In this document: positions 7,691 through 39,245 of the stretch, one piece after another
How the letters are laid out: every line of letters begins with the position of its first letter
Position numbering within the stretch: the first letter of the stretch is position 1
Origin: Escherichia coli
Lineage (GTDB): Bacteria > Pseudomonadota > Gammaproteobacteria > Enterobacterales > Enterobacteriaceae
Assembly (NCBI RefSeq): GCF_009931435.1
Contig: NZ_CP043414.1
Strand: one strand, 5' to 3'
DNA: 64,000 nt
Program-made: the position numbers and the translations under genes
Notes under the pieces: generated by a model
What the model was told of the DNA's origin: nothing
The model's database searches: none
Seen by the model: the letters and a program-made list of their open reading frames with translations, nothing else

Positions 7691-8698
7691 CTATCCCAGT
7701 AACTCTTCCTTAACATCCATCGCCAGCTCAAACGAATGCAGGCGCGCCTGGTGATCGAAAATCTGCCCGTTAACCATAATCTCATCCGCGTCGGTTTCGC
7801 GCAGGATCGACTGCAAACCATGACGCACTTTCGCTTTATCACCCACCAGCGACATACTCAGCGCCTGCTGCACGCCATACTGCTCAGACGGTGACCAGAA
7901 CTGATCCATATTTTGAATCGGTGGCGGCAGTTGCCCGGTTTCACCGCGGCGCAGCTTCACAAAGGCTTGCTGCATTGAGGTAAACAGAAATTCAGCGTCG
8001 CGGTTGCTGTCGGCGGCGATAATATTGATGCACACCATCGCATACGGTTTTTCCAGTCGTGCCGACGGTTTGAAGTTGCTGCGATAAAGATGCAGCGCCT
8101 GGAATAGCATATCCGGTGCGAAGTGTGAGGCAAACGCGAACGGCAGACCAAGCTGCGCCGCCAGTTGTGCACTGTAAAGGCTGGAGCCTAATAACCACAC
8201 GGGGATTTTCTCGCCATAGCCTGGTACCGGGCGCACATGCGGATTGGGATCGCGGGCGTCAAACCAGTCCACCAGCTCCGCGACATCGCGGGGGAAATTA
8301 TCAATATCGCCGCTCATATGACGACGTAGAGCCATCATGGTTCGCTGGTCACTACCCGGAGCACGGCCCAGCCCCAAATCGATTCGCCCCGGATAGAGCG
8401 TATTGAGCGTGCCGAACTGTTCGGCGATCACCAACGGTGAGTGGTTTGGTAACATCACGCCGCCAGACCCCAGATGCAGCGTAGTGGTATTCGCCGCCAG
8501 ATAGCCAATCAAAACTGATGTTGCAGCACTGGCAATACCGGTCATATTGTGGTGTTCTGCCAGCCAGTAGCGATGATAGCCGCGCTTTTCAGCCAGACGG
8601 GCGAGGTCGAGAGAGTGGGAGAACGCTTCTCGCGCTGAAGAACCTTCTGGGATGGGGGCCAGATCGAGTAGCGAAAACGCAGTGGTTTTATCAGTCAT
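7691..8698 (-). CDS. yhbW: luciferase-like (LLM-class) flavin-dependent monooxygenase
   Basis: 335 aa ORF; [19 protein letters not shown]...; position after mtr. Confidence 0.85.
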
Positions 8699-8778
8699 AA
8701 CAGCTCACTTTGTTACCGATTAATCTTTAATACTGCATTAAAGGGTAGTTAAAGTTGTTAACAAAGTGAGCTATTTGC

Positions 8779-9657
8779 TTAGGCTTGCAGTTCCAGCCCA
8801 GCCAGCCGTCTCCAGTAGCCGTTACAGTCGCTGTTTGCCGTCAACGGGAGTGGTGCAGCGCCATTTTCATTAGCGCGGAAGGCGTCGAGCATCGCGAAAG
8901 TGTCAGTACCCTGCGGTGACAGGCGGACCACATCAACCAGCCCCTGCATGGATGCCAGCTCGTTACCGAGGTTGTACACGTAGCCGCTCATGGTCTGAAT
9001 GCCATTGAGCACAAACACTTGTTGGTTTTCCTGCGACAGCACGTTGCGCCCGTTCGGATACTTAATGCAGCAGGTTTCACACTCATCTTTTGGGCGGTCT
9101 TCCGAACGCGCGGTAAAGCAGCGGGCGGAGTAGGCCAGCGGCAGATGACCGTAGCTCAAGACTTCCACTTCAAACTGGTTGCGAATGCCCAGCTCATCGC
9201 ACTGATTAAGCAGATTCACCAGCCAGTCGCGGGAAAGTTCCACCGGCATACACCAGCGCATCATTCCCTGTTTGAGCAATATTTTCAGCGTCACCGCGTT
9301 GTAGCAGTTCAGAGCGTGTCCGGCGACGAACGGCAGTTTGCGCTCAGCGCACATATTCACCACGCCGAGATCGCTGGCTTCAATCAGAAACTCACCGTTC
9401 TCAACATAGCGTTTCAGTTCGCCCAGTTCGGAGGATGCCTGCACCAGCGCCAGCGTGGAGAGCACAATCTGCTTGCCACTTCCGGCGAGCGATTTTGCCA
9501 TCTCCAGCCAGTCGCCAACTTTGGTTGCCCGGCGTTTGCTACAGACCGCTTCACCGAGATAAATCACGTCTGCGCTGCTGGCGGCGGCCTGCTGATAAAA
9601 ATCTTCCAGCGTCTCTTTTGGCCAGTACCACAGCACCGGCCCTAAGGAATATTTCAT
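8779..9657 (-). CDS. ubiV: peptidase-U32 family protein, O2-independent ubiquinone biosynthesis hydroxylase subunit UbiV (YhbV)
   Basis: ORF 8779..9675; start set at MKYSLGPVLWYW (292 aa); U32 family; adjacent to ubiU. Confidence 0.85.
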   Translation of the reverse strand: MKYSLGPVLWYWPKETLEDFYQQAAASSADVIYLGEAVCSKRRATKVGDWLEMAKSLAGSGKQIVLSTLALVQASSELGELKRYVENGEFLIEASDLGVVNMCAERKLPFVAGHALNCYNAVTLKILLKQGMMRWCMPVELSRDWLVNLLNQCDELGIRNQFEVEVLSYGHLPLAYSARCFTARSEDRPKDECETCCIKYPNGRNVLSQENQQVFVLNGIQTMSGYVYNLGNELASMQGLVDVVRLSPQGTDTFAMLDAFRANENGAAPLPLTANSDCNGYWRRLAGLELQA

Positions 9658-25084: not shown

Positions 25085-25150
25085 TGTGTACCGATTGCTG
25101 GAAGCGGCGTACCGTAGAGCGGATAAGACGCGCCAGCGTCGCATTCGACA
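25085..25150. repeat. REP-like palindromic element
   Basis: gcggataagacgcgccagcgtcgcat unit between agaS promoter and agaA 3' end. Confidence 0.5.
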
Positions 25151-25225
25151 CCACTGCACAGATTAAAACGAAAGAAAAAGAAAGGCCTTACGGGGGAAGT
25201 GAAGGCCCAATAAAGGAGCAAACCA

Positions 25226-26359
25226 TCAAAACGAAGCTAATTGACCCTGAATCCAGATTTGTTGCACATGCAGTCCGCTATTCAGCGCAACGACGCTGGC
25301 GCGTTTGCCCGGTTTAAGTGATCCCAGAACACCATCAACACCCAGCATACGCGCCGGATGCAGCGATGCCATATGGATGGCTTCCGCAGGCGTTACGCCC
25401 GTCAACTCGACCATGTTGCGCACTGCCGCATCGACAGACAGCGTACTGCCCGCCAGCCCACCGGACGCGGTACGGACAACGCCACCGTGCATCTGCACTT
25501 CTTCACCACATAACGTATAGCGACCATCCGGCATCCCGGCTGCCTGCATCGCGTCGGTGATGAGCACGATTCTCTCTTTCGCACAGCAACAACACAGCGA
25601 CATCGCCGCCGGATGAACATGATGCCCATCGGCTATCAGTTCCAGCCAGGCGCGCTTGTCCGTTAAACCCGCGCCAACCATTCCCGGTTCGCGGTGATGT
25701 AATCCTGTCATCCCGTTATAGCAATGCACCAGGCCGTCTGCGCCAGCATCAAATGCGGCGCGGGTTTGTTGCCAGGTTGCTGCGCTATGTCCCAGCATTA
25801 CCCGCACGTTCTGCTGTTTAAGATGACGAATGGCTTGTAACGCGCCCGTTTTTTCCGGTGCCAGCGCCACCACGCGCAAGGTATGCCGTGAAACAGCAAT
25901 CAATTGATCCAGCTCGGCAATTTCCAGCTCGCGAAACAGCTCCGGCGGATGTGCGCCTTTATTCTGCGGCGTGAAGTACGGCCCTTCGAGATAACTCCCC
26001 AGCACTTGCGCACCAGGTCCACCGCGCTGGCAGCGTAGCGCAATACGTTCCAGCGCCGCATGAATGGTATTAAGCGGCGCGGTTACGGTAGTCGGCAACC
26101 AACTGCCGACACCTTCCCGTGCCTTGTGCATTGCCAGCTTGTCGAGCGCATCCGGCGCGTCATCCATAACATCAACGCCCGCACCACCGTGTACATGGGT
26201 ATCGATATAAGCGGGGCAGAGCAGTTCCGCATCGCGTTCAGTCACGCCCACTGGAATCGGTTCGATTGCTGCGATTACACCGTCAGCAATACACAACTGA
26301 TGGTCATCGAGCCATCCCTCTTCAGTCAGCAGCCTTCTGGCGCGCAGAACGTGTGTCAT
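25226..26359 (-). CDS. agaA: N-acetylgalactosamine-6-phosphate deacetylase (NagA family), apparently full length
   Basis: ORF 25226..26380; start set at MTHVLRARRLL so that ATG overlaps agaF stop (ATGA); metal-binding H-x-H near N-terminus. Confidence 0.85.
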   Translation of the reverse strand: MTHVLRARRLLTEEGWLDDHQLCIADGVIAAIEPIPVGVTERDAELLCPAYIDTHVHGGAGVDVMDDAPDALDKLAMHKAREGVGSWLPTTVTAPLNTIHAALERIALRCQRGGPGAQVLGSYLEGPYFTPQNKGAHPPELFRELEIAELDQLIAVSRHTLRVVALAPEKTGALQAIRHLKQQNVRVMLGHSAATWQQTRAAFDAGADGLVHCYNGMTGLHHREPGMVGAGLTDKRAWLELIADGHHVHPAAMSLCCCCAKERIVLITDAMQAAGMPDGRYTLCGEEVQMHGGVVRTASGGLAGSTLSVDAAVRNMVELTGVTPAEAIHMASLHPARMLGVDGVLGSLKPGKRASVVALNSGLHVQQIWIQGQLASF

Positions 26360-30242: not shown

Positions 30243-30314
30243 TTTCCTCTCCAGTTCAGATTGCTGCGATATTAATCTTTCGTTTTGTTTCAGTTGATAC
30301 TGCGTCATGGTGAG

Positions 30315-30478
30315 ATAAAAATAAAACGAAAGATAATAGTTTTCTGATCTGATTCACAAAAGAAACATAATGAAAGTCACTGAAACGAGAGTAGCTTGCG
30401 TCAATGGGCAAGGTGGGCTTGCATTTGCTCAATAGAAAGGCGTAAATAGGCAAAACGAAATGAAACGAAAGTTTTACG
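30315..30478. promoter_or_regulatory. divergent kbaZ / agaR promoter region with AgaR operator-like motifs
   Basis: aaataaaacgaaag and aacgaaatgaaacgaaag motifs in the intergenic gap. Confidence 0.6.
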
Positions 30479-39211: not shown

Positions 39212-39245
39212 GGAAAACGGGGAAACACAGTCTCCCCGTTTTCCG
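39212..39245 (-). terminator. garD rho-independent terminator
   Basis: aaacgggga...tccccgttt hairpin immediately downstream of garD stop. Confidence 0.65.

Follow-up and report, generated by a model that had tools for sequence, protein, structure and literature searches.

An inverted repeat fills the gap between the ubiV and yhbW genes on the minus strand of the analyzed Escherichia coli DNA (64,000 nucleotides, herein referred to as the window). This repeat is clearly a real, selected element. One of its arms covers the ribosome-binding site of yhbW, and the other would lie at the edge of the yhbW promoter. Pairing between the two may block translation of yhbW on transcripts that read through from ubiUV, a tentative reading to which we give somewhat less than an even chance of being correct. 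The ubiUV genes form an Fnr-activated anaerobic operon (PMC10470549), and YhbW is a luciferase-like flavin monooxygenase (PMC6561319). If the reading is true, two genes of opposite physiology, the anaerobic ubiUV and the O2-requiring yhbW, are kept 80 nt apart without a terminator. 

Structure of the Inverted Repeat

The downstream ORF (7691-8698, minus strand, 335 aa) is named yhbW in the matching RefSeq records and encodes a luciferase-like monooxygenase, the homologues of which belong to Pfam family PF00296. The upstream ORF, ending at 8779 on the same strand, is named ubiV in these records. The stop codon of ubiV, TAA, was located at 8779..8781 (minus strand) by the ORF list and by the homologous RefSeq records, where ubiV has 879 bp and ends at the equivalent position. 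The start codon of yhbW lies at 8696..8698 (minus strand). The gap between the two genes (8699-8778) is therefore 80 nt long, and 77 of these nucleotides (8699-8775) belong to the repeat. Thus, these ORFs bear out the statement of an earlier note on this DNA that the repeat fills the gap between two minus-strand genes.

The same note had described a perfect inverted repeat of 14 nt with an AT-rich loop of about 40 nt, and both features were confirmed. By sequence inspection, agctcactttgtta (8702-8715) and taacaaagtgagct (8759-8772) are perfectly complementary over 14 nt. A repeat finder extended the arms to 17 nt (8699-8715 and 8759-8775, 94%, one G.U pair), with 43 nt between them. The spacer (8716-8758) contains 13 G+C among its 43 nucleotides, that is, 70% A+T. 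The order on the minus strand is the ubiV stop codon, 6 nt, AGCUCACUUUGUUA, the spacer with a nested palindrome, UAACAAAGUGAGCU, GUU, and the yhbW AUG.

The yhbW regulatory unit has the upstream (5') arm, AAUAGCUCACUUUGUUA (8759..8775, minus strand; perfect core 8759-8772), as its first conserved element. The downstream (3') arm, UAACAAAGUGAGCUGUU (8699..8715, minus strand), is the translation initiation region of yhbW. A Shine-Dalgarno-like sequence, GUGAG, is found within this arm at 8704-8708 (minus strand). Its GUGA pairs with CACU of the 16S anti-Shine-Dalgarno, which makes it a modest Shine-Dalgarno site. The position of the downstream arm over the Shine-Dalgarno region is key to the likeliest mechanism and had been missed in the earlier note. 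An N-terminal extension of YhbW through the arm was ruled out because an in-frame TGA is located inside the arm.

In 20,000 shuffles of the 80-nt gap, no perfect inverted repeat of 14 nt was found; the longest one had 13 nt and was seen 3 times. A chance origin of the repeat is therefore excluded. Only 4 inverted repeats (12-nt seed, within 200 nt) were found in the whole 64-kb window, and no second copy of the arm sequence was found there even at 2 mismatches. Folding of the minus-strand RNA, suggested earlier as a check, gave -27.2 kcal/mol for the gap (z = -4.2 against shuffles). The fold of the plus strand is about as good, as expected of an inverted repeat. Five of the 14 perfect pairs in the stem are G-C, and the 43-nt loop holds an inner hairpin.

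Conservation Within Escherichia coli

The repeat region was found in 5,423 of the 5,426 complete E. coli genomes by a search with an 86-nt query at blastn sensitivity. With this query, the median number of copies per genome is 1 and the highest is 2. A dispersed element (REP/BIME, ERIC, or MITE) was rejected because the repeat is single-copy both in the genomes and in the window. Relative to K-12, the gap has only two changed positions, neither of them in the arms, compared with a divergence of 4-5% in the flanking coding DNA. In the most divergent full-length E. coli versions sampled, all polymorphisms of the gap are also located outside the 14-nt arms.

An insertion of 125 bp was found in 5 of the 14 sampled full-length E. 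coli matches. In strains ACN001 and M19, it is located between the ubiV stop codon and the upstream arm. The insertion carries the ERIC/IRU primer sequences and is of the ERIC type. This 125-bp element is a separate insertion that adjoins the repeat. In many E. coli, as well as in E. albertii and Salmonella, 100-125 bp of ERIC/REP-type DNA lie between the ubiV stop codon and the repeat, and the repeat therefore travels with yhbW and not with ubiV.

Conservation Across Enterobacteriaceae

The DNA ahead of YhbW orthologues was collected from E. albertii, two Citrobacter, Superficieibacter, Salmonella, Enterobacter asburiae, two other 'Enterobacter' isolates, Pluralibacter, Cronobacter, Franconibacter, Atlantibacter, Buttiauxella, Mangrovibacter, a 'Klebsiella sp.' isolate, and Tenebrionibacter. 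Three further contigs were also sampled, together with Erwinia, Brenneria, Acerihabitans, Serratia, Providencia, and Aeromonas. The scan of the genome collection yielded about 13 Enterobacterales among 80 loci, and the Klebsiella pneumoniae sequence was obtained from a primer-sequence scan of metagenomes.

Conservation in related species had also been proposed as a check, and it was found to extend across about 20 Enterobacteriaceae lineages. Both arms are recognisable in 20 such lineages and, additionally, in K. pneumoniae; in most of them, the arms differ hardly at all from the E. coli arms. The gene order ubiT-ubiU-ubiV-yhbW is conserved. The conserved unit starts exactly at the upstream arm, which is nearly invariant in these lineages, and the sequence upstream of this arm is unrelated between species. 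Depending on the species, the unit is preceded by the ubiV stop codon at 4-7 nt, by an ERIC-type element (E. albertii and some E. coli), or by a REP-type element (Salmonella). In loci L093 and L095, a ccdAB module is found upstream of the unit. Between the ubiV stop codon and the core of the upstream arm there are 4-7 nt in 15 lineages, and in L096 the two overlap.

In 19 of the 20 species, the block GCAGTAT(T)AAA follows the upstream arm at a constant 18-19 nt. No part of the spacer is better conserved than GCAGTAT: C46, T49, and A50 are invariant, and G45 and A47 are conserved at 90% or more. All large indels between species are located downstream of this -10-like block. Spacers of 43 nt are found in Escherichia, Salmonella, Citrobacter, E. 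asburiae, and Pluralibacter, and spacers of about 90-115 nt in Klebsiella, Cronobacter, Franconibacter, Atlantibacter, and two isolates of Enterobacter. In L096, the spacer reaches about 170 nt, and both arms are still paired. All 21 lineages have the downstream arm at -20 to -4 relative to the ATG. Judging by the alignment, a fixed spacing followed by a free length and then by a fixed arm is the pattern of a promoter, a 5' UTR, and a ribosome-binding site.

In Erwinia, Brenneria, and Providencia, ACAAAGTGAGC is kept before the ATG without a complementary upstream arm. Conservation of the downstream arm therefore does not need pairing. The Shine-Dalgarno region is 37-59% unpaired in the predicted folds for these three genera. 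In Erwinia and Brenneria, ubiV is immediately followed by a G+C-rich hairpin and a T-run (the hairpin of Brenneria, with a 10-nt loop, was found by inspection), and in Providencia the upstream gene is not co-oriented with yhbW. No terminator-like hairpin was seen between ubiV and yhbW in the repeat-carrying species. Complementarity of the arms thus appears to be present where transcription could read in unimpeded and absent where it could not, and this small sample agrees with the prediction of an RNA-level role in read-through, which a role in DNA alone does not make.

Promoter of yhbW and Candidate Marbox

The yhbW gene is a member of the MarA/SoxS/Rob/RamA regulon (PMC6561319, PMC4310594), and in E. 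coli under vanillin stress no protein was induced more strongly than its product (PMC6561319). A 'yhbW promoter' fragment of K. pneumoniae is shifted by purified RamA, and in vitro its transcription rises 6.9-fold with this activator (PMC4310594). The primers for this fragment are given in the S4 table of PMC4310594, and the sequence between them was recovered in this study from 24 metagenome contigs. The fragment is 261 bp long and extends from 35 nt before the ubiV stop codon to +80 of yhbW. Since it spans just the conserved unit, the RamA-dependent promoter lies inside this unit.

The strongest candidate MarA/SoxS/Rob/RamA site in this promoter is the upstream arm. The candidate class II marbox, ATAGCTCACTTTGTTAACAA (8755..8774, minus strand), is oriented forward relative to yhbW and would serve as the site for MarA/SoxS/Rob(/RamA). 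It has 3 mismatches to the 20-mer pattern AYnGCACnnWnnRYYAAAYn, and the upstream arm also matches the pattern gcannwwntgnnaaa weakly, with 3 mismatches. Such 20-mer matches were observed 144 times in the window, with 144 expected. The match as stand-alone evidence was therefore rejected as being no better than chance. The K. pneumoniae fragment of 261 bp has a single 20-mer marbox match at no more than 3 mismatches, namely the upstream arm, and it is forward-oriented there; a 15-mer match at 1 mismatch is located in the yhbW coding part of the fragment. The invariant columns of the alignment coincide with the specified marbox positions A1, G4, C5, C7, R13, Y14, Y15, and A16 and with the 'tg' of the ChIP-derived motif. 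Support for the marbox thus comes from its position at the edge of the unit, from this agreement of columns, and from the distance to the -10 candidate, not from the match alone.

The candidate -10 hexamer, CAGTAT (8730..8735, minus strand), belongs to the conserved block and is located 19 bp after the candidate marbox in the window (18-19 bp among the species). The A at -11 and the T at -7 of this hexamer are conserved. TATTAA (8727-8732, minus strand) is an alternative candidate. We infer that transcription of yhbW starts between the arms, in a zone about 7 nt after the candidate -10 (8720..8726, minus strand; about 3303420-3303426 in MG1655). This zone was placed on the basis of the -10 candidates and of the large indels, all of which lie downstream, as in a 5' UTR. 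No consensus sigma-70 promoter was found in the scanned region, as expected because the promoter is activator-dependent. A distance of 18-19 bp between marbox and -10 is said to be the class II arrangement described by Martin and co-workers in 1999. The candidate marbox, with its forward orientation, would be centred at about -42 from the putative start; class II marboxes are forward and centred at -36 to -55 (PMC12052159).

Known class II marbox promoters (PMC12052159, PMC5684230) resemble the candidate arrangement at yhbW in having a forward site over a poor -35, 18-19 bp from a -10-like block; yhbW is likewise a regulon member, and its orthologous fragment is activated by RamA in vitro. Unlike known marboxes, the candidate of yhbW is weak (3 mismatches), and the MarA ChIP-seq peak is located elsewhere, in ubiV. 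A regulator site for yhbW had been suggested as one function of the repeat. This suggestion holds insofar as the upstream arm is the best candidate activator site; it accounts for one arm only and leaves the complementarity unexplained. No convincing match to FNR, ArcA, OxyR, NsrR, or Fur sites was seen in the arm or in the inner palindrome when these were compared by eye with the consensus sequences.

By MarA ChIP-seq in E. coli H10407, a strong site, gcacaatctgcttac, was identified inside yhbV (ubiV), and no peak was reported in the ubiV-yhbW gap. According to the authors of that study, their list misses the sites preferred by SoxS or Rob. In the window, gcacaatctgcttac is found with one mismatch at 9462-9476 (plus strand), which places it about 765 bp ahead of the yhbW start codon and reversed with respect to this gene. 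The ChIP-seq site was rejected as being the repeat because it maps inside ubiV and not in the gap. It could belong to another promoter, possibly one in ubiV, the transcript of which would carry both arms.

Possible Conservation of Pairing and Predicted Masking

In the 20-species alignment, the long-range pairing of the arms was the only consensus structure predicted by RNAalifold. For the specified structure, 85% of cells are standard pairs, compared with 34-49% when the partners are slid by 1-3 columns; a shuffle control for pairing conservation in this alignment was unimpressive. In the 13 core pairs, the yhbW-sense strand has 231 Watson-Crick, 11 G.U, 4 A.C, and 14 other cells, and K. pneumoniae has one additional U.G pair. 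Counted as events, G.U and A.C stand at about 11 against 4 (p of about 0.06). The lean of single-sided changes toward G.U in the yhbW-sense strand is a suggestive signal of RNA pairing, though not a decisive one. One full compensatory change, from A-U to G-C, was found in Mangrovibacter. The pair just beyond the core is A-U in 3 species, G-C in 6, and unpaired in 10. True covariation is thin because both arms are almost invariant. Pairing is kept at spacers from 43 to about 170 nt, which is more in keeping with an RNA stem than with proteins bound to DNA at a fixed geometry.

The spacer holds an inner palindrome, CTTTAAT-GCAGT-ATTAAAG (8725..8743, minus strand), which was identified from the fold and from the alignment and overlaps the candidate -10. 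This palindrome forms helix 2 of the 20-species alignment, with 82% of cells paired. In Cronobacter, its symmetry is kept by changes on both sides (TTCAT...ATGAA).

For the prediction of masking, two RNAs were folded per species: a read-through model, beginning 30 nt upstream of the unit, and a model of the gene's own transcript, beginning just after the -10-like block. In 17 of the 20 species, the minimum-energy fold of the read-through model joins the nine-base stretch AAAGUGAGC to the upstream arm; averaged over these bases, the probability of being unpaired is about 0.001 in 14 of the 20. In the model RNAs from the putative start, AAAGUGAGC is 21-86% unpaired. For K. pneumoniae, the unpaired probability of the Shine-Dalgarno region is 0.001 in the read-through model versus 0.54 in the model from the putative start.

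Proposed Insulation From Read-Through

At the DNA level, the upstream arm would be the activator site of the yhbW stress promoter, resembling a class II marbox and located over a poor -35. The gene's own transcript would start between the arms. The upstream arm would then be absent from this mRNA, and so the Shine-Dalgarno would be accessible and the mRNA translatable. Transcripts driven by Fnr and running in from ubiUV would carry both arms, because there is no terminator after ubiV. In such read-through RNA, a long-range stem of 13-17 bp would bury the Shine-Dalgarno of yhbW and halt translation of the O2-dependent monooxygenase under conditions in which this enzyme would be of no use. The untranslated yhbW RNA would probably be open to Rho, nucleases, or decay. 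The net effect would be insulation of yhbW translation from upstream read-through, like that provided by the fold-back hairpin of IS10.

A more specific proposal is that one 14-nt sequence is doubly constrained, as a class II marbox in DNA and as an anti-Shine-Dalgarno in RNA, and that it forms a promoter-of-origin switch for YhbW. Oxidative or xenobiotic stress acting through MarA/SoxS/Rob/RamA would then yield YhbW protein, and anaerobic Fnr-driven read-through from ubiUV would yield none. We regard this as possible, although on balance we would expect it to fail. To our knowledge, no known marbox has been described as also being an anti-Shine-Dalgarno.

If these proposals are true, promoter DNA that is transcribed from upstream supplies the silencer for translation of its own gene. 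A promoter-of-origin switch would then be present in a housekeeping locus of the chromosome and conserved across Enterobacteriaceae, and an ordinary chromosomal gene would be using the trick by which insertion sequences protect themselves from outside promoters. An anaerobic RNA-seq signal over yhbW would not need to mean protein. There would be an explanation for the gap being one of the best-conserved non-coding parts of the locus, and mutants of the arms, together with compensatory ones, would provide a concrete and cheap system for the study of promoter-dependent translation. If they are wrong, the repeat remains clearly selected and still needs an explanation.

Alternative Explanations

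The conservation of the arms could also be explained at the DNA level, with the arms being inverted copies of one protein site and the RNA pairing a by-product. The arms might represent two marboxes for monomeric MarA/SoxS/Rob/RamA, one of them activating and one downstream of the start, or two operators of a putative repressor that loops the promoter. Near-invariance of both arms is usual for protein sites, and the downstream arm is conserved even without its partner. Furthermore, taken in reverse orientation, the downstream arm fits the 15-mer marbox pattern no worse than the upstream arm, and the RamA-bound fragment holds both arms. On the other hand, the spacing of the arms varies from 43 to about 170 bp, their helical phase is not conserved, and the window has no further copy of the arm sequence. 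The element on the promoter side in Erwinia, Brenneria, and Providencia is unrelated to the downstream arm, and the two sites thus need not match. Recognition of DNA also does not predict a lean to G.U in one strand, and the lineages without complementarity have either a terminator or no upstream gene in the same orientation. We consider this explanation unlikely, but worth keeping in view.

Translational coupling would use the same stem in a different way. The stem would close the Shine-Dalgarno of yhbW until a ribosome ending translation of ubiV melts its base, and YhbW would be made in step with UbiV. A similar arrangement is reportedly found in the RNA phage MS2, where translation of the replicase is coupled to that of the coat protein through a long-range stem that masks the Shine-Dalgarno. 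As in such coupling stems, the downstream initiation region of yhbW is paired with a sequence near the end of the upstream cistron. The ubiV stop codon, at 4-7 nt before the upstream-arm core in 15 lineages or overlapping it in L096, is well placed for this role, since the 5'-most bases of this arm pair with the Shine-Dalgarno bases (GUGAGC) and a ribosome at the stop codon could open the stem. The stem also brings the ubiV stop and the yhbW start close in space, there is no terminator between the genes, and the order ubiT-ubiU-ubiV-yhbW is conserved. However, the distance from stop codon to stem, which is essential for coupling, is broken by insertions: 100-125 nt of ERIC/REP DNA are present in 5 of the 14 sampled E. 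coli, in E. albertii, and in Salmonella, and the repeat is unchanged. In L095, a ccdAB module separates ubiV from the unit, yet 10 of the 13 core pairs are kept (12 counting two beyond the core). In addition, yhbW has an activator-dependent promoter of its own, which would be located in the loop, and YhbW needs O2, whereas UbiUV works without it. Coupling is therefore improbable in our view.

The stem formed on read-through could also be a processing or decay site for RNase III, the cutting of which would split ubiUV from yhbW and destroy the initiation region. The great length of the stem, its nearly uninterrupted pairing (14 perfect pairs, or 17 with one G.U, at -27 kcal/mol), and its conservation speak for such a site. 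Its 13-17 bp are nevertheless at or below the length usually needed by RNase III, and as a sole explanation we consider this quite improbable. Cutting by RNase III can coexist with the insulation proposed here, as its executing step.

An intrinsic terminator or attenuator of the ubiUV transcript, which had been the first suggestion for this repeat, was rejected and appears very improbable: like a Rho-independent terminator, the repeat forms a strong hairpin directly after a stop codon, but the sequence 3' of the stem, GUUAUGACUGAU, holds the yhbW start codon and not a U-tract, the loop is very large (43 nt in the window and at least that elsewhere), the stem is AT-rich (5 G-C among 14 pairs), the 3' arm is the ribosome-binding region of the next gene, and ERIC/REP insertions part the repeat from ubiV. 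A scan of positions 8300-9200 found no terminator-like site, and the searchable part of an E. coli 3'-end survey lists no 3' end in the gap, which is weak evidence.

Comparison With Known Systems

No curated RNA family (Rfam 15) was found above its gathering score in the window or in seven orthologous loci, and this candidate identity was rejected. The match found in the window, to a eukaryotic miRNA hairpin model, is below threshold (26.6 bits versus 56) and is attributed to chance. A description of this repeat was not found in the searchable literature.

The closest resemblance is to fold-back inhibition. In IS10/Tn10, only transcripts started outside the element reportedly carry the sequence that folds onto the ribosome-binding site of the transposase, and IS50 is said to be similar. 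The protection of IS10/Tn10 from external promoters is credited to Davis, Simons and Kleckner (1985, as cited in PMC13181058). In IS10 and IS50, as at yhbW if its start is placed correctly, an arm upstream of the gene's own start is complementary to the gene's own ribosome-binding site. The transcripts of the own promoter would thus be translatable, and those started outside would carry both arms. The 3' arm of a fold-back structure lies over the Shine-Dalgarno or the start codon, and the downstream arm of yhbW, at -20 to -4 and including GUGAG, was found in just this position. Unlike in IS10, the gene is not a transposase gene but a single-copy chromosomal stress gene, its 5' arm appears to double as an activator-binding site, and the invading transcription would come from a defined neighbour operon, ubiUV. 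The analogy is suggestive of a repeat that works like the known fold-back designs and would not be surprising in principle.

A conserved inverted repeat is also known from IS200 (PMC4513863); its 3' arm includes the Shine-Dalgarno, and binding of the 30S subunit is blocked. In IS200, repression is constitutive because both arms are located inside the gene's own 5' UTR, whereas the 5' arm of yhbW would lie upstream of the gene's own start.

Palindromes within the ubiV-yhbW Gap

Two shorter palindromes were found in the gap that holds the 14-nt inverted repeat. The first, CTTTAAT-N5-ATTAAAG, is nested in the spacer of the repeat at 8725-8743 on the minus strand and overlaps the candidate -10 of the yhbW promoter. 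This palindrome is kept across genera; in Cronobacter, both sides are changed with symmetry retained (TTCAT...ATGAA). It may serve as an operator to which a dimeric regulator binds, and not as a hairpin in the RNA. The second, TTGTTAACAA (8755-8764), is a perfect 10-bp palindrome that includes an HpaI site. It straddles the junction of the upstream arm with the spacer, and most species retain it.

Elsewhere in the 64-kb window, inverted repeats of comparable size occur at three places: 30275-30334 (16-nt arms, 28-nt spacer), at 25128-25304 (perfect, G+C-rich 14-nt arms with 149 nt between them), and at 39212-39244 (15-nt arms, 3-nt loop); the last of these looks like a terminator.

Insertions around the Repeat

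The ubiV stop codon is separated from the repeat by a variably present 125-bp ERIC/IRU-type element, found in E. coli ACN001 (L002:1790-1914), in E. coli M19 (L003), and in Escherichia albertii (L008, upstream of 2990). Its insertion point corresponds to the interval between 8775 and 8779 of the window. Among the 14 full-length E. coli matches sampled, five have a span of 626 bp versus 501 bp. Salmonella carries a REP/BIME-like insert at the same ubiV stop/repeat junction. The ERIC and REP identities of these inserts are presumed from the consensus sequences of these elements. In two Tenebrionibacter-like contigs (L093 and L095, 1685-2298), a ccdA/ccdB toxin-antitoxin module lies between ubiV and yhbW on the opposite strand; the repeat is still mostly intact in L095 but decayed in L093.

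Palindromic sequences are frequent targets of IS110-type elements. E. coli M19 carries an insertion of an IS110-family transposase (L003:1333-2352, junction near 2440) that ends within the repeat's downstream arm (...TTCTC|TTTGTTACCG...). Through this insertion the start and N-terminus of yhbW were lost, and the gene is annotated as a pseudogene.

Long-Form Insert Downstream of the -10-Like Block

A conserved "long-form" insert (CAGCTTTTCTGGC...GCCAGGCTGGAAGAAGACCTTCAATCTGATGAC..GCTG) occupies about 70 nt from the -10-like block (GCAGTAT) to the downstream arm in Klebsiella pneumoniae (L098) and in the orthologous loci L004, L009, L086, L087, L094, and L089. Escherichia, Salmonella, and Citrobacter are without it. 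The insert, for which no Rfam match was found, contains a hairpin rich in G+C, together with a 4-codon mini-ORF (ATG ACN NNG CTG TAA/TAG). The downstream arm opens with the stop codon of this mini-ORF as its first triplet. All four synonymous third bases occur in the Thr codon (ACC, ACT, ACA, and ACG), and this variation hints at translation of the mini-ORF.

Match to a MarA Site inside ubiV

A MarA site, gcacaatctgcttac, was identified within yhbV of E. coli H10407 by ChIP-seq/EMSA (PMC5684230, Table 1). The window contains GCACAATCTGCTTGC, with one mismatch to this site, inside ubiV at 9462-9476 on the plus strand. It runs in reverse orientation relative to both genes, ubiV and yhbW. A promoter, internal or antisense, may be located here.
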